Origin: Candidatus Woesebacteria bacterium
GTDB taxonomy: Bacteria; Patescibacteriota; Microgenomatia; UBA8517
Assembly: GCA_016700095.1 (NCBI GenBank)
Contig: CP065002.1
Coordinates: 1,060,145-1,124,144, forward strand
Direction: 5' to 3'
DNA: 64,000 nt
Shown here: positions 3,126-56,589 of the stretch, one piece after another
How positions within the stretch are numbered: the stretch's first letter is position 1
Layout of the letters: every line of letters starts with the position of its first letter
The notes under the pieces: generated by a model
The model's input: the letters and a program-made list of their open reading frames with translations, nothing else
What the model was told of the DNA's origin: nothing
The model's database searches: none
Translations under genes and position numbers: made by a program

Positions 3126-3148
3126 TATTGTGCGAAACCCTGATTATA

Positions 3149-3248
3149 AGAAGAGTAGTAAATCCTGAGCATTAGAAGGGTAGTTAACCCTGAGTATTAG
3201 AAGGGTAGTTAACCCTGAGTATTAGAAGGGTAGTTAACCCTGAGCTTG
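3149..3248. repeat. Tandem repeat, about 4 copies of a 25-bp unit (agaagggtagttaaccctgagtatt); the first copy is degenerate
   Basis: Direct reading. The unit resembles the tRNA-Glu flank gaagggtga. Confidence 0.8.
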
Positions 3249-3256
3249 TCGAAGGG

Positions 3257-3329
3257 TGACCCCACCCGGATTTGAACCGGGGTTTCTTGGATGAGAACCA
3301 AGTGTCCTAGGCCTCTAGACGATGGGGCC
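3257..3329 (-). tRNA. tRNA-Glu (anticodon CTC)
   Basis: The reverse complement reads GGCCCCATCGTCTAGAGGCCTAGGACACTTGGTTCTCATCCAAGAAACCCCGGTTCAAATCCGGGTGGGGTCACC. Acceptor and T stems pair, the T loop is TTCAAAT, and the anticodon loop TTCTCAT gives anticodon CTC. Confidence 0.85.
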
Positions 3330-3517
3330 AATAAATTGGCTATTATCAAAACACACCCTAAACACACATGACAACAAGGTGTATGGTAAACGGTTACTTA
3401 TTATGTGTAAAAATGGTAAACATAAACCGTTTCCATACTTTTGTATCAACCACCAGTATATTTTACCTTGAGCATAAGACAAACACAATTTTTATCACAA
3501 AATGTTAAGCTAGTAAT

Positions 3518-16126: not shown

Positions 16127-16440
16127 ATTCTTTTGTATTTGTTTGGCATGTGCCTTTTCTAACATATTTTGATATAATTCTCTGCATGGCAAGAGAAGTC
16201 GTTATTAAAACTGTTGTAGTTCCTATCGAATATGGATGTATAGAAATCGGTCAGCGTGTGAGGGCAGAGCTTGAAAATAGTGTTCCCAATGGAACTGCTT
16301 ACTGTTCAGATACACCTGGAATTAAAACTACAATATTAGGACGCCAGTGTTTAAATACAACATGCTCTAAATACTCGGGTTACAGATGATTTTTCATCAT
16401 CTTTTTGATATTTTGTTATAATACTTCTGAAAACTTTCAA

Positions 16441-16812
16441 TGCCCGGTCGTCTCAGTGAAACTCAGTGAGTATTCTCACGCAAGTGGTAGGACATGTCAT
16501 GCAAGGCATGACCTAAAGCATATTTTGAAGTATAATCTGGTTGGTGATTTAGTTAATCCTCCATTGCCCGGTCGTCTCAGTGAAACTCAGTGAGTATTCT
16601 CACGCAAGTGGTAGGACATGTCATGCAAGGCATGACCTAAAGCATATTTTGAAGTATAATCTGGTTGGTGATTTAGTTAATCCTCCATTGCCCGGTCGTC
16701 TCAGTGAAACTCAGTGAGTATTCTCACGCAAGTGGTAGGACATGTCATGCAAGGCATGACCTAAAGCATATTTTGAAGTATAATCTGGTTGGTGATTTAG
16801 TTAATCCTCCAT
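16441..16812 (+). repeat. Three exact tandem 124-bp units, each carrying a sigma70-like promoter (TGACCT-16nt-TATAAT) and the first 14 nt of tRNA-Gln with a 32-nt insert in place of nucleotides 15-17
   Basis: The sequence tgcccggtcgtct recurs at 16441, 16565, 16689 and 16813 with an exact 124-bp period. Each unit contains ggtaggacatg, which is tRNA-Gln nucleotides 18-28, and then diverges into a gtcatgc-aagg-gcatgac hairpin. Confidence 0.9.
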
Positions 16813-16883
16813 TGCCCGGTCGTCTAATGGTAGGACATGCGGCTCTGAACCGTATAATCGAGGTTCGAATCCTTGCCGGGCAG
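16813..16883 (+). tRNA. tRNA-Gln (anticodon CTG)
   Basis: TGCCCGGTCGTCTAATGGTAGGACATGCGGCTCTGAACCGTATAATCGAGGTTCGAATCCTTGCCGGGCAG. U1-A72 pair and G73 discriminator as expected for bacterial tRNA-Gln. All stems pair. Confidence 0.85.
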
Positions 16884-16926
16884 CTAAGACGGGCACCCCT
16901 AGGTGACCGTATTCTCTATTTAGCTT

Positions 16927-17655: not shown

Positions 17656-18993
17656 TTAAATTAACGGTACTGAGGTAACAGTTTCGTTGTGGATATAGAG
17701 TTGCCGATTTAATATATTCGTTACTTCTCGTTTTTCCAGCATCGTTCCATTTCTGAAAATGTAGTTCGCATAATCCATAAAGTGAACAGGCTTGTTTTCA
17801 GGGTTAATGTCTTGCGCCCACAAAATCTCATCTCGCATTTTCTTGTAAGATTCCATACTTTCTTTTATAAATAACTTAAAAGTAAATATCTGCGGATGCG
17901 CCATATACATGAAGTTTAGGTATCGTAATATTTGCTTTACTAGCTTTTCCTCTGTGAGATATGGTTCCGGGCAACCATACTTTTTCTGCCTCGTACAGTG
18001 ATAGTAAATGTGATAGCGTGGTTCTCCATATTTTCGCTTTCTGTATCTATCTTCACCAATAACCAGTGAACCGCAACTCGCACATTTGAACAGTTCTTTG
18101 AAGGTAAAGGTTTTGCTACCCCATTTTGCTTTCTTTGGAGCTACAAGCTGTTTTTGTACTTGATCAAATAGCTCTTTGCTAATTAGTGGTTTATGTGACC
18201 CTTTGTACCAATTACCACTTCCGATAGGATACTCAAATTCTCCATAATAGAACGGGTTTTTAAGCATCAAGTAAATTTGACTGAGTGTTACTTTCTTTCC
18301 TGCTCTGGTTGTTAAACAAGAATCGAGCCACTTCTTGAGAGTTCTTCCGCTATCACCATTTTTCGCAACCCTTTCAAACATTTCTGTCACAAATGGTGCT
18401 CTTTCAGGATCAGGAATAATATCTTTTATGCCAGCCATGGCTCTATTGAAATAACCGATTGGCGGCATTCCCGGTCTCCATCCCATGTTACATTTCGCTC
18501 TGATACCTCTTTTTACATTTATTCCTTTCTGGTCATTCTCAAGTTTGGCTTGAGAGCAAAGGATCATAAGTAAAAACTTATCACTTGGGCTGTTTGAGAA
18601 TGCTTGCGTGAATGTTTTAATGTGGATGAGTTTTCCGCCATCCATCATATCTACAAGCATTCCTAAATCTCCTGCATTCCTTGATAATCTATCTGGAGCC
18701 CATGTTAAAATCCCTGTGAACATTCCATTACGAAGATCATTGAGGAGCTGATTAAAGACTGGTCGCTGCCCCGAAAGTTTGGCTGAATGACTTTCTTTGC
18801 GAATCTCTTTGATAAATAGTCCTTCTTTTATCGCCATGTCATTCATTTCTTTGATTTGAGAGTCAATTGACATGGCTTGCCGTTCATCATCCTCAGTTGA
18901 TTTTCGGGCATAGAGACAATATTCAACGGTCTGTACTTGCGGTAGAACTGCTTGCTGTAACAAGTTATTCTGGTAGTTCATATCAGGGAACAA
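17656..18993 (-). CDS. Large serine recombinase (resolvase/invertase N-domain, recombinase domain and zinc ribbon)
   Basis: YCLYARKSTEDDERQAMSIDSQ carries the catalytic Ser motif. A recombinase domain follows, then a Cys cluster CASCGS...CTRQKKYGC. Confidence 0.9.
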   Translation of the reverse strand: MFPDMNYQNNLLQQAVLPQVQTVEYCLYARKSTEDDERQAMSIDSQIKEMNDMAIKEGLFIKEIRKESHSAKLSGQRPVFNQLLNDLRNGMFTGILTWAPDRLSRNAGDLGMLVDMMDGGKLIHIKTFTQAFSNSPSDKFLLMILCSQAKLENDQKGINVKRGIRAKCNMGWRPGMPPIGYFNRAMAGIKDIIPDPERAPFVTEMFERVAKNGDSGRTLKKWLDSCLTTRAGKKVTLSQIYLMLKNPFYYGEFEYPIGSGNWYKGSHKPLISKELFDQVQKQLVAPKKAKWGSKTFTFKELFKCASCGSLVIGEDRYRKRKYGEPRYHIYYHCTRQKKYGCPEPYLTEEKLVKQILRYLNFMYMAHPQIFTFKLFIKESMESYKKMRDEILWAQDINPENKPVHFMDYANYIFRNGTMLEKREVTNILNRQLYIHNETVTSVPLI

Positions 18994-43807: not shown

Positions 43808-44401
43808 TCAGCTGATAAGTCTCAAAACAAACGGGACAATTCTTGTTGTCGGCAGTTTATATCGATACGCAATTTTGTAATACCACTTGAAACATATCTT
43901 CTTCATTTCTTCACATTGCTGATCAAAGACAAAGTCATCCTCTACGTCATTAAGAAGACTTCCTGCTGCTCGTTCTATTGCAATACTGAGTAGCGCATAT
44001 TCATTTTCATAATCAGGGTCGAAAAAGTCTCGTGATCTGTGCCTTTTTGATTCGGCAAGAGCAATCAGTTCGTCCTCGATGGCAAGATATAACCTAATTC
44101 CATCACTGCTTCTTACCTGCTTACTCAGTAGCGGCTTTTTATTCAATAGTATTGCTCTCCATAGAACTTCGTAGTCAAAATGTAGCGAATAAGAAAGCCT
44201 AGAAATTTCTGGAATAATTCTCTTATTGATATATCTCTTTCGTAATTCTCGTGGCGTTAGGTTATCATTAATTTTATATTTCGTTTTTACATGGCAAGTA
44301 ATAGCATAACAGGCATATGAATGAGTAAATAACATAAGCCTTGCCCTATTAAATGTTGTATATTTTCTTGCCCTTGCCATAATTAAAGGGCAGAAACACA
44401 A
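43808..44401 (-). CDS. Hypothetical protein (197 aa), convergent with the helicase gene and 4 bp from its stop
   Basis: ORF only. Confidence 0.4.
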   Translation of the reverse strand: MCFCPLIMARARKYTTFNRARLMLFTHSYACYAITCHVKTKYKINDNLTPRELRKRYINKRIIPEISRLSYSLHFDYEVLWRAILLNKKPLLSKQVRSSDGIRLYLAIEDELIALAESKRHRSRDFFDPDYENEYALLSIAIERAAGSLLNDVEDDFVFDQQCEEMKKICFKWYYKIAYRYKLPTTRIVPFVLRLIS

Positions 44402-44708
44402 CTATATCAAAATATATCATTTATCTGTTGTGTTGTTATGGGATATTATAGAAAATAAGACACCCTTTTTTATAGTGTCTCGTTTGTCTCATTTAGCCTT
44501 GATGTGAGACAATCGTTATAAGGATAAGAAGGTTCTAGACCGAGCCTCTCAGCAAACTCGGAAAAACAAAGATAGAAGTAGTATTTTGGGCCGCTACTTC
44601 GGGCTTTTCTGAGAGTTCGAATAAAACACTTTATTTATAATCCTTTGTTTTTTTCATATCCTGAAGTACCAAGAATGGATTTAGGCCTTCAATTCGGAGT
44701 TTTCTGCC

Positions 44709-45050: not shown

Positions 45051-45449
45051 TTAAGGATTAATGTGTACCAATGCAAGCCATACCACGGTTAAATCGACGA
45101 CTAAACCAGCCAGTGCATAAGAAACTGTGAGAAGTAACCATAATCCAAATACACGCCAAATATATCTTTTAATTTTCTTTTTATCTCGTCTTTTATGGGC
45201 AAGATAAGAAACTAATAATAGATATCCTAAAAGAGGGATGTAAACAATATTTCTTATCCCGCGATATAGATTAATGTAGTGCTCAGAACCAAATTGGTAA
45301 CCAGAGAAACCTCCTTCTTTTGTAGGAACATTTTCAGGAGCAAATAGCCCATCATTTATAGAAAGATATACAAAATATACAGTAATCAATAAAGCTGACA
45401 CCAAGATAATTTTCCTCAATAGGTATTCTGTTTTTTCAAGATTATCCAT
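45051..45449 (-). CDS. Small membrane protein (hypothetical)
   Basis: Three or four hydrophobic helices. Confidence 0.4.
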   Translation of the reverse strand: MDNLEKTEYLLRKIILVSALLITVYFVYLSINDGLFAPENVPTKEGGFSGYQFGSEHYINLYRGIRNIVYIPLLGYLLLVSYLAHKRRDKKKIKRYIWRVFGLWLLLTVSYALAGLVVDLTVVWLALVHINP

Positions 45450-46355: not shown

Positions 46356-46728
46356 TACGCTGGAGTAACAGTAGGGATGAAAACTGGTTTACTAACTATA
46401 GCAAAATATGTTCGAATAGCGTCTATGCTCGCCAGCACTTCGGCAGGCTCAGTGCATGCCCAGATTCGTTCATATGACATGGTATGTATCAAGGTGAAGA
46501 TTAAAGAACCACCTAATGGGACAAAAGAAAACCAATATGACATATAACTATATCAAATTACGTCATTATTAACTCTTTTTATACTGTCCCATTTGTTCCA
46601 TTTAGCTTCAAGATGGTACACTTATAGCGACAGTAATGGTTTAGACCCGTATGTTCAGCAAAATCCAAAAATTGTAGTAAAAAGCCTGCCTCATGTCTAG
46701 TTTTTTAAACCGTTTGATATAATTAGAT

Positions 46729-53987: not shown

Positions 53988-54044
53988 AGCAAACTAATTA
54001 ACTCTATTAAACTACCTGCCAAATAATATTTCCCGTACAACTTT

Positions 54045-54300
54045 CCCCTTTCTTTCTGGATTCCCTTTTTCAAGGGAATGACAACGTCTCTGTCACTCTC
54101 TGTTGTTTTCTGTCATCCTCTTCTGTTTTCTGTCATCCTCTGTTGTTTTCTGTCATCCTCAAAAAGCGTTTTGTCATTCCTGGCTTATGTTTTGTCATCC
54201 TCGCGAAGGCATATTGTCATCCCGCACTCGATGCGGGATCCAGTCCCCTTTCTTTCTGGATTCCCTTTTTCAAGGGAATGACAACGTCTCTGTCATCCCC
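54045..54300. repeat. Repeat cluster: two 60-bp direct copies (54045 and 54245), six spaced TTGTCATYC units and 8-bp-stem hairpins
   Basis: cccctttctttctggattccctttttcaagggaatgacaacgtctctgtca occurs twice. ttttctgtcatcctc occurs three times. The hairpins are atcccgca-ctcga-tgcgggat and atccccga-ctccga-tcggggat. Confidence 0.85.
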
Positions 54301-54601
54301 GACTCCGATCGGGGATCCAGTCCCCAGATAAATCTTTCCACTCTGGATTAACACTCTCAATCAATTCCAGTTTCCATGTCCTATTCCATTTCTTCAATTG
54401 TTTTTCTCGTACAAGAGCAGCCTCTATATCATTAGTAACTTCAAAATATACCAGCATACTAACATTGTGTTTTTGGGTAAAACCTTTAATTAAATGATGT
54501 TTATGTTCATACATCCTTCGTTCTAAATTATTCGTGACTCCTATGTAGAGTGTCCCGTTTCTTTTACTTGCAAGAATGTAGACATAATAAGTTTTGGCCA
54601 T
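54293..54601 (-). CDS. GIY-YIG nuclease (small URI-domain endonuclease)
   Basis: YYVYILASKRNGTLYIGVTNNLERRMYEHK. The C-terminal tail DWIPDRSRG is encoded by one of the hairpin repeats. Confidence 0.85.
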   Translation of the reverse strand: MAKTYYVYILASKRNGTLYIGVTNNLERRMYEHKHHLIKGFTQKHNVSMLVYFEVTNDIEAALVREKQLKKWNRTWKLELIESVNPEWKDLSGDWIPDRSRG

Positions 54602-54609
54602 ACAAATAG

Positions 54610-54965
54610 TATTAATGTCTAGATTCCCTTTTTCAAGGGAATGACAAAGAGACTACGCAAACAACCAAAGGATACAGGAATGACAAAGGTGAAAAGGAAT
54701 GACAATGTTGTTTTCTGTCATCCTCAAAAAGCGTTTTGTCATTCCTGGCTTATGTTTTATCATCCTCACGAAGGCATATTGTCATCCCGCACTCGATGCG
54801 GGATCCAGTGTTCTCCTGTCATCCCCCGCGAAAGCGTATTGTCATCCCGCACTCGATGCGGGATCCAGTCCCCTTTCTTTCTGGATTCCCTTTTTTCCTC
54901 CTTCGCTGATAGCTTCGGAAGGACACAGCAAGGGAATGACAAAAAGGCTGTAGAAATGACAACGA
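54610..54965. repeat. Second half of the repeat cluster. It includes a 104-bp direct copy (54704-54807) of 54123-54226 and more gaatgacaa/tgtcatcc units and hairpins
   Basis: Direct comparison of the two segments shows two mismatches. The ggattccctttttcaagggaatgacaa palindrome also recurs. Confidence 0.85.
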
Positions 54966-55833: not shown

Positions 55834-56589
55834 ATGAATCGACCTCGTTCCCTACTTGAACGTAAGTTCAAGACGCGCGCCATCCGGCGACAATTCGGTA
55901 ACGAGGTCTTTGTAACTTTATTATACACAACTGGTATCATAAGAATAATGGCATACGTTTTTATCGACGAAAGTGGAGATTTGGGATTTAATTTCCAGAA
56001 AAAGGGAACTTCAAGCTATTTTGTGATAACTCTTTTATTTAGCTCTACCAAACGTTCTGTTGAAAAAGTAGTCAAAAAAACATTCAGAAGTTTACCCGCT
56101 AAGGTACAGCAAAAACATACAGGCTGTCTACATGCTGTGAACGAAAAACCAAAAACTCGCATTAAACTGCTGAGTCTTCTCAACAAACAAGACATCTCAA
56201 TAGTCACGATATATCTTAATAAGAAAAAGGTCTATACCAGATTACAAGATGAGAAACACGTTCTCTATAATTACGTAACAAATATTTTACTAGATAGAGT
56301 CTATTCAAAGAAGCTGATTCCAACCAAAGGCCAAATACAATTAATCGCTTCTCAGAGAGAAACAAATAAGTTTCTTAATGCAAATTTTAAACAGTACTTA
56401 GAAAATCAGGCTAAAAATAATCACAAGCTAAATATTACTATTGAAATAAGACCATCCCACTCAGAAAAGGGTTTGCAAGCTGTCGATTTTGCATGTTGGG
56501 CAATTTACCGAAAAATTGAAAGGGGTGATTCTAGCTACATCAATATAATTAATAGCAGAATAATAGAAGAAAGCCCGTTGTTTCCTTAA
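55834..56589 (+). CDS. DUF3800-family protein; the likely true start is the internal Met at about 55948
   Basis: MAYVFIDESGDLGF is the DUF3800 N-terminal signature. Confidence 0.65.
   Translation: MNRPRSLLERKFKTRAIRRQFGNEVFVTLLYTTGIIRIMAYVFIDESGDLGFNFQKKGTSSYFVITLLFSSTKRSVEKVVKKTFRSLPAKVQQKHTGCLHAVNEKPKTRIKLLSLLNKQDISIVTIYLNKKKVYTRLQDEKHVLYNYVTNILLDRVYSKKLIPTKGQIQLIASQRETNKFLNANFKQYLENQAKNNHKLNITIEIRPSHSEKGLQAVDFACWAIYRKIERGDSSYINIINSRIIEESPLFP

Follow-up and report, generated by a model that had tools for sequence, protein, structure and literature searches.

A threefold tandem array of tRNA-Gln-derived pseudo-copies in front of the island-bearing tRNA-Gln gene of a Candidatus Woesebacteria genome

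In a genome of the Candidate Phyla Radiation (CPR), an intact tRNA-Gln gene is preceded by three identical repeats of 124 bp, which contain parts of the same tRNA, and is followed directly by a metal-resistance island encoding a serine recombinase. This arrangement raises the question of where the repeats came from. They might be scars of the recombinase, amplified promoters, genes for small RNAs, an artefact of the assembly, or remodelled copies of the adjoining tRNA gene. The locus was analysed in a window of 64,000 nucleotides from a Candidatus Woesebacteria bacterium (contig CP065002.1), and all coordinates of the locus are counted from the first letter of this window.

Anatomy of the array and its homology to tRNA-Gln

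In the 64-kb window, TRF placed one array at 16441-16825, with a period of 124, 3.1 copies, 100% matches and 0 indels. The periodicity sets in exactly at 16441, which corresponds to nt 1 of tRNA-Gln, and breaks at 16826, the last periodic base (16825) being nt 13 of the intact tRNA-Gln. The intact gene, with the anticodon CTG, was called at 16813-16884 by ARAGORN and up to 16883 by Rfam (60.3 bits). The following features were identified:

16441-16564, + strand: unit 1, a tRNA-Gln-derived pseudo-copy (TRF, direct comparison and alignment)
16565-16688, + strand: unit 2, identical to unit 1 (TRF and direct comparison)
16689-16812, + strand: unit 3, identical to unit 1 and abutting the intact tRNA-Gln (TRF and direct comparison)
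16813-16884, + strand: intact tRNA-Gln, anticodon CTG, with its 3' end as the attB left half-site of the island
16496-16512, 16620-16636 and 16744-16760, no strand: palindrome GTCATGC-AAG-GCATGAC, overlapping a -35-like hexamer

By direct comparison the three full units were mutually identical. In this, TRF and direct comparison agree with the initial annotation of the stretch, which had described an exact array of 3 x 124 bp with identical copies in front of the intact tRNA-Gln. With a constant period of 124 bp and head-to-tail copies homologous to the adjoining tRNA-Gln, the array has the form of a tandem segmental duplication or of a set of tRNA pseudogenes.

The unit was found to be collinear with nt 1-61 of tRNA-Gln in six blocks, in which 49/51 positions are identical to the window's own tRNA-Gln. 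For unit 1, the blocks and insertions are arranged as follows, all on the + strand:

16441-16453: block, tRNA nt 1-13
16454-16484: insertion of 31 nt in the D-loop
16485-16496: block, tRNA nt 16-27
16497-16525: insertion of 29 nt in place of the 5' anticodon stem
16526-16529: block TGAA, tRNA nt 34-37
16530-16537: block GTATAATC, tRNA nt 40-47
16538-16544: block TGGTTGG, T-stem/loop
16545-16554: insertion of 10 nt in the T-loop
16555-16560: block AATCCT, tRNA nt 56-61
16561-16564: CCAT, the end of the unit, where the 3' acceptor strand would be

The outline given in the initial annotation was retained with shifted borders. The 5' block shared with the gene comprises 13 nt (TGCCCGGTCGTCT) instead of 14. 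The D-loop insert, in which small hairpins are possible, measures 31 nt (16454-16484) and not 32, and it replaces nt 14-15 of the gene. The second tRNA block, TGGTAGGACATG, corresponds to nt 16-27 of the gene and not to nt 18-28, while the second hairpin was recovered as the perfect palindrome GTCATGC-AAG-GCATGAC. The description of the unit as a 5' half of the tRNA had to be abandoned, since the remainder comes from the tRNA as well, as shown by T(T)TGAA, GTATAATC, GGTT(G)G and AATCCT (p=0.002). With unit nt 57-124 locally aligned to tRNA nt 28-72, TGAA--GTATAATC-TGGTTGG[TGATTTAGTT]AATCCT stands against TGAACCGTATAATCGAGGTTCG----------AATCCT. The score of this 3' part was 25.5, compared with 14.2 +/- 2.9 for shuffled sequences and 13.8 +/- 2.9 for random genomic windows (p=0.002 each).

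Six other tRNA-Gln genes matched the blocks of the unit at 32-43/51 positions only. Diagnostic are the host-specific blocks GGACATG and GTATAATC, the latter being present with 8/8 positions in the window's own tRNA-Gln and with 3-4/8 in the six others. Because of this difference (49/51 against 32-43/51), the unit derives from this very tRNA-Gln gene or from a near-identical paralogue. The functional tRNA-Gln also carries a perfect TATAAT at 16855-16860, in the region of the anticodon stem and variable loop, where the six other genes have a GTTTATC-like sequence. This host-specific TATAAT within tRNA-Gln accounts for the -10 box found in the pseudo-copies.

Absent from the unit are tRNA nt 14-15, 28-33, 38-39 (the CC of the 3' anticodon stem) and 62-72 (the 3' acceptor strand). 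Since the anticodon stem and the 3' acceptor strand are lost, the unit cannot form a functional cloverleaf, and no tRNA was detected in the units by ARAGORN or, even at E<=10, by Rfam. An intron-containing or split tRNA gene was considered and rejected, as removal of the inserts leaves the same four segments missing and the exons incomplete. When the unit was folded, as had been proposed for it, no significant fold was obtained, the folding energy being no better than that of shuffled sequences (z -0.17 to -1.05).

The palindrome GTCATGC-AAG-GCATGAC, with perfect arms of 7 bp, has three matches in the 64-kb window, all of them in the units, with 0.05 expected by chance. An operator-like role of this palindrome was discarded, as no further copy in the window gives evidence of a regulon. 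Coding potential of the units was likewise discarded, as a period of 124 bp cannot be divided by 3 and the ORFs that run across the units are all short and spurious.

Transcription signals and the neighbouring metal-resistance island

Two kinds of promoter-like sequences were identified at the locus:

16414-16422, + strand: P0, extended -10 box TGTTATAAT, read from the sequence, 18 nt upstream of unit 1
16508-16536, 16632-16660 and 16756-16784, + strand: promoter-like site ATGACC-17-TATAAT, the TATAAT being homologous to tRNA nt 41-46

Directly before P0, a hairpin followed by a T-run (16385-16406) closes a small upstream ORF. At the tRNA-Gln genes of three related loci (L001, L002 and L006), TGATAAAAT-type boxes are located 14-19 nt before tRNA nt 1. 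Because layout and distance are the same, P0 is likely the original promoter of the tRNA-Gln gene, and the array is likely interposed between P0 and the intact gene. Between the P0 region and the promoter/leader of the unit, no significant homology was detected (p=0.29).

The initial annotation had assigned a good sigma70-like promoter to each unit. The hexamers are indeed there, one ATGACC-17-TATAAT per unit (equivalent to TGACCT-16-TATAAT), with a 10/12 match to the consensus, which occurs in 2-3% of random windows. However, the -10 box is owed to the tRNA sequence, and once TATAAT is inherited, a -35 hexamer with 4/6 matches at a spacing of 16-18 has a P of about 0.13. The promoter likeness of the unit therefore counts as weak evidence, because TATAAT is the tRNA's own sequence. 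P0, with its extended -10 box upstream of unit 1, looks more native than the site in the unit.

Within the array, the + strand has no predicted intrinsic terminator. Transcription initiated at P0, and at the sites in the units if these are active, would read through into tRNA-Gln, and RNase P would remove the leader. An independent small-RNA gene would have a terminator of its own and a fold above chance, and neither was found in the array.

On the other side of the tRNA, the following features belong to the island:

16885-44555, no strand: metal-resistance island of 27.7 kb, outside the array
17656-18993, - strand: large serine recombinase of the island, 445 aa (Pfam PF00239 Resolvase, PF07508 Recombinase and PF13408 Zn_ribbon_recom)

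In line with a large-serine-recombinase island, the recombinase with its Resolvase, Recombinase and zinc-ribbon domains is located near one end. The cargo includes two P-type ATPases, a multicopper oxidase, DsbD and thioredoxin proteins and a BlaR1/BlaI-like pair, and DNA methylases, a terminase-like protein and a helicase are also encoded. For the 187-aa gene next to the recombinase, exact-protein matches were obtained on 22 contigs (33 index blocks), and ten loci (L001-L010) were compared. The left 4.4 kb of the island is at least 99.5% identical to the window in L001-L008 and L010, and 87% identical in the remaining one of the ten, while the left flanks differ in all ten loci. In the window, the left junction lies between 16884 and 16885, at the extreme 3' end of tRNA-Gln (...GGGCAG followed by CTAAGACGGG), and across the island loci the homology starts at ...CAG followed by CTAAGACGGGCACCCC. 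In five loci, the junction is located directly behind a complete tRNA-Gln of varying sequence with the anticodon CTG or TTG. The locus L004 begins inside the 3' end of the tRNA and L005 just 4 nt before the junction, and in L007 and L009 the island is joined at non-tRNA sites. At the right end (44555), a further locus (L015) is 100% identical up to that base and divergent beyond. The two junctions share only about 3 nt (CAG/CAA), with no longer target duplication. For a serine recombinase, no target duplication is expected, and the sharp junctions in different genomic contexts without target-site duplication are those of a serine-recombinase island.

The near-identical left 4.4 kb in at least 8 genomic contexts from separate metagenomes suggests a recent and wide horizontal spread of the island. 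Near its right end, a 29-nt direct repeat was observed at 44393-44421, with a second copy (79% identical) 2.1 kb further, at 46539-46567, and a motif ATTTAGC[C/T]T..A is present at about 16922 near the left end of the island, at 44490 near the right end, and at 46600. Between the two copies of the 29-nt repeat, an ORF of 132 aa (45051-45449) is located which is not on record elsewhere. The 29-nt repeats and the motif at 46600 may be the remnant of an older related insertion. Further along the window (54044-54950 and 55837-55908, - strand), a cluster of complex direct repeats (families of 52-104 nt and a tandem repeat of 20 bp x 3.6) was identified about 1 kb from a full-length match to the Rfam DUF3800-IX RNA (56.9 bits).

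Distribution and origin of the array

Neither the unit nor its inserts were found anywhere else in the window, in 15 related loci, in the GTDB species representatives, in JGI metagenomes, in IMG/VR, or in phage or plasmid records. A source of the inserted sequences was likewise not detected in the window, the loci, IMG/VR, phages or plasmids. For the interrupted 5' part of tRNA-Gln, the pattern TGCCCGGTCGTCT-N20-45-TGGTAGGACA gave 0 matches in the GTDB representatives and in IMG/VR and a single match in the JGI metagenomes, at a locus of different structure without an array (L011). At this locus (L011 2650-2748, - strand, Ga0209542_10060212), a promoter-like TAGAAT box is followed by a 17-nt fragment, TGCCCGGTCGTCTAATG, that equals nt 1-17 of the window's tRNA-Gln; after a further 10 nt comes a complete tRNA-Gln whose acceptor stem is different. 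The fragment represents another 5' tRNA-Gln fragment between a promoter and an intact gene.

An exact-protein search with five left-flank proteins retrieved no independent assembly of the genome. The DUF4153 protein adjacent to the array was 100% identical to QQS38778.1 of a Candidatus Woesebacteria MAG. It has no relative among the GTDB representatives; the best homologue is 43% identical, and for the homologue P0004 (38% identical; L012-L014) no synteny was identified in its context. In the literature, nothing specific was found on CPR tRNA arrays or on serine-recombinase islands targeting tRNA-Gln. The array is thus a singleton without comparative support for function. Because no homologue was found in any collection searched, a function as RNA gene is not supported by covariation or conservation.

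The array is probably best understood as a lineage-specific partial self-duplication of tRNA-Gln(CTG), which was remodelled by indels, amplified threefold and is carried as a leader of the tRNA from P0. We infer the order of events, the use of promoters and the processing from the observed anatomy, the homology of unit and tRNA, the borders of the island and the absence of the array elsewhere. At the start, the tRNA-Gln gene would have been located 18 nt behind the extended -10 promoter P0 (16414-16422). Through a partial head-to-tail self-duplication (about tRNA nt 1-61), a truncated copy would have come to lie behind P0, with the intact gene displaced further downstream. Three indel events would then have introduced 31 nt into the D-loop, 29 nt for the 5' anticodon stem and 10 nt into the T-loop of the truncated copy, which would also have lost the CC in the 3' half of its anticodon stem, together with its entire 3' acceptor strand. 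As the most recent step, unequal recombination or slipped-strand mispairing would have produced the three identical units of 124 bp. The first duplication could have relied on the 13-nt block that unit and gene share, and the later steps on the 124-bp units themselves. Most likely, the units form a 5' leader of roughly 390 nt in a tRNA-Gln precursor transcribed from P0, which would be removed by RNase P, and the promoter-like site of each unit may add transcription starts nearer to tRNA-Gln.

A second tRNA of the window, tRNA-Glu (3254-3330, - strand), also carries a tandem repeat derived from its own terminus, so that slippage at tRNA genes recurs in this genome. Directly downstream of its 3' end, at 3136-3244, a 25-bp unit is repeated 4.4 times (84-90% identity), and the unit, AACTACCCTTCTAATACTCAGGGTT on the tRNA strand, resembles the 3' terminus of tRNA-Glu with its trailer, GGTCACCCTTCGACAAGCTCAGGGTT.

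Accumulated point substitutions under neutral decay would not give near-perfect blocks (49/51) split by three large insertions. With hardly any such substitutions present, the unit may have arisen in one complex template-switch event, or some selection may have acted in its origin. All insertions lie in three loops of the cloverleaf, which could be a hint of a logic at the RNA level, and the perfect identity of the copies together with the palindrome over the -35-like box is compatible with a maintained functional element.

A different origin would be a scar of the serine recombinase, which the initial annotation had proposed, or an att-site duplication, in either case left behind as the island, or some other element targeting tRNAs, integrated and excised repeatedly. 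The array does adjoin a tRNA which is the integration site of an active-looking island, and the 17-nt fragment of L011 shows that 5' fragments do occur at tRNA-Gln loci. However, the island joins at the 3' end of the tRNA, with no less than 59 bp between the crossover and the end of the last unit; its two ends share only the 3 or so nt noted above, no element is enclosed between the repeats, and the non-tRNA parts of the unit match nothing in the island. The same junction occurs elsewhere without an array, which none of the island loci elsewhere (nine with junction examined) carries, and within 2 kb upstream of five other island-bearing tRNA-Gln genes no copy of their own 5' 12-mer or D-arm 12-mer was found. 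Because the array is missing at the other island-bearing tRNA-Gln genes and unit and island share no match, the array is neither product nor part of the island, which uses the opposite (3') end of tRNA-Gln, and we regard a recombinase origin as extremely unlikely. The remark in the same annotation that the array does not fit the usual att duplication was borne out, as the repeats contain nt 1-61 and follow one another without a gap on the 5' side of the gene, and the crossover is at the 3' end. Thus, the repeat neither spans the crossover nor flanks the element, and it does not accompany the element elsewhere. For an artefact of assembly or polishing, in which the unit is real and the true copy number differs or the copies were homogenised by the consensus, it speaks that short reads resolve exact tandem repeats of 124 bp poorly, and that copy number and identity rest on one assembly, a MAG. 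It is nevertheless quite unlikely: the source contig of 1,274,238 bp represents approximately a whole CPR genome, which suggests a long-read or curated assembly spanning the 372-bp array, De Bruijn assemblers tend to collapse such loops and not to expand them to three copies, and the complex unit and the junctions between P0 and unit and between unit and tRNA cannot come from misassembly. The accession series of the genome may match that of a study on MAGs from activated sludge using Nanopore and Illumina reads. In this study, 30 circular Patescibacteria MAGs were recovered (PMC8012365).

Two further explanations assign a function to the units. After displacement of the gene from P0, the site ATGACC-17-TATAAT could have become a working promoter, and selection for a higher supply of tRNA-Gln(CUG), from three tandem promoters in addition to P0, could have favoured the triplication. 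This would agree with one sigma-70-like site per unit, co-directional with the gene and of a quality rare in random windows (10/12; 2-3%), with the last site ending 28 nt before tRNA nt 1, with the absence of a terminator between the units, and with the 29-nt insertion, which provides the inherited TATAAT with a correctly spaced -35-like hexamer. It is unlikely all the same, as a 4/6 hexamer at a spacing of 16-18 has the P of about 0.13 given above, and as an extended -10 box without a -35 box evident by eye characterises the tRNA promoters here and at the related loci, while the site in the unit is without TG. Moreover, tRNA-Gln(CUG) reads CAG only, presumably the rarer Gln codon at 36.6% GC, and the site is not conserved. 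Alternatively, each unit might be an independent gene for a tRNA-derived small RNA acting as decoy or regulator, or such an RNA might be released by processing, like RttR. The promoter-like site and the local hairpins of each unit, the identity of the copies and the precedent of the E. coli tRNA-terminal repeats of 178 bp annotated as RttR are in line with this; the lack of a terminator, the insignificant z-scores of the fold, the lack of any Rfam match, RtT included, and the lack of a homologue in the collections searched, and with it of covariation and conservation, speak against it and make it very unlikely. Improbable to the same degree is a broader version, in which the units are maintained as tRNA-Gln-derived RNAs with three expanded loops, made from their own promoters or from the long precursor. 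These would act as regulators or decoys of a tRNA-Gln-binding factor or compete for the 3' acceptor strand of the tRNA to tune its maturation, and would form a 5'-side CPR counterpart of tyrT/RttR.

If the partial self-duplication preferred here was only a rearrangement, the locus offers a clean natural example of a tRNA gene being partly duplicated, scrambled and amplified. tRNA genes in the CPR are presumably mostly single-copy. The locus also illustrates that, in a reduced CPR genome, sequence from inside a tRNA can give rise to a promoter-like site, and that tRNA fragments beside an island-bearing tRNA are not automatically footprints of a recombinase. If the units were expressed as stable RNAs, they would represent the second independent case of small RNAs from tRNA-terminal repeats, E. 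coli RttR being the other one, and the first from the CPR. Of more practical interest is perhaps the island, which carries copper/metal resistance, targets the 3' end of tRNA-Gln and shares its left 4.4 kb at no less than 99.5% identity among many different hosts from separate metagenomes.

Comparison to known systems

With classical att repeats, the array has in common a partial tRNA copy beside the intact gene at an island-bearing locus. However, att repeats consist of the 3' part of the tRNA in two copies which flank the element kilobases apart, whereas the array consists of 5' and middle parts in tandem, separated from the island by the tRNA, and encloses nothing. Like tandem segmental amplifications and tRNA pseudogenes, the units are arranged head-to-tail, identical, homologous to the adjacent gene and not recognisable as tRNA. 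The usual representatives differ from them, as here three large loop insertions are combined with almost no substitutions and a promoter-like site was gained from the TATAAT of the tRNA. Archaeal multi-intron and split tRNA genes share the extra sequence in the D-loop, anticodon arm and T-loop. Unlike in these genes, removal of the inserts restores no tRNA, the organism is bacterial, and the units are followed by an intact gene without interruptions.

In E. coli (NC_000913.3), the tyrT/tyrV locus contains a 178-bp unit in 3.1 copies with 95% identity, which abuts tyrV on its downstream side and is annotated with the small RNA RttR and tpr. There, the last 19 nt of tRNA-Tyr open each unit, which also holds further degenerate T-arm-like sequence. 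In both systems, about 3.1 tandem copies abut the tRNA, the unit opens with one end of the tRNA (the 3'-terminal 19 nt there, the 5'-terminal 13 nt here), and the array is co-transcribed or co-transcribable with the tRNA. Homology to RtT was not detected in the present array, in which Rfam gives tRNA only, both at gathering thresholds and at E<=10. It differs further from tyrT/tyrV in having no small ORF and in being known from the DNA and not as a stable RNA. Moreover, the present array is located upstream (5') of the tRNA, its copies are identical to 100% and not to 95%, and its unit is nearly a whole tRNA with three insertions. The tyrT/tyrV RttR repeat of E. coli is the closest precedent, and the present array mirrors it on the 5' side of the tRNA.
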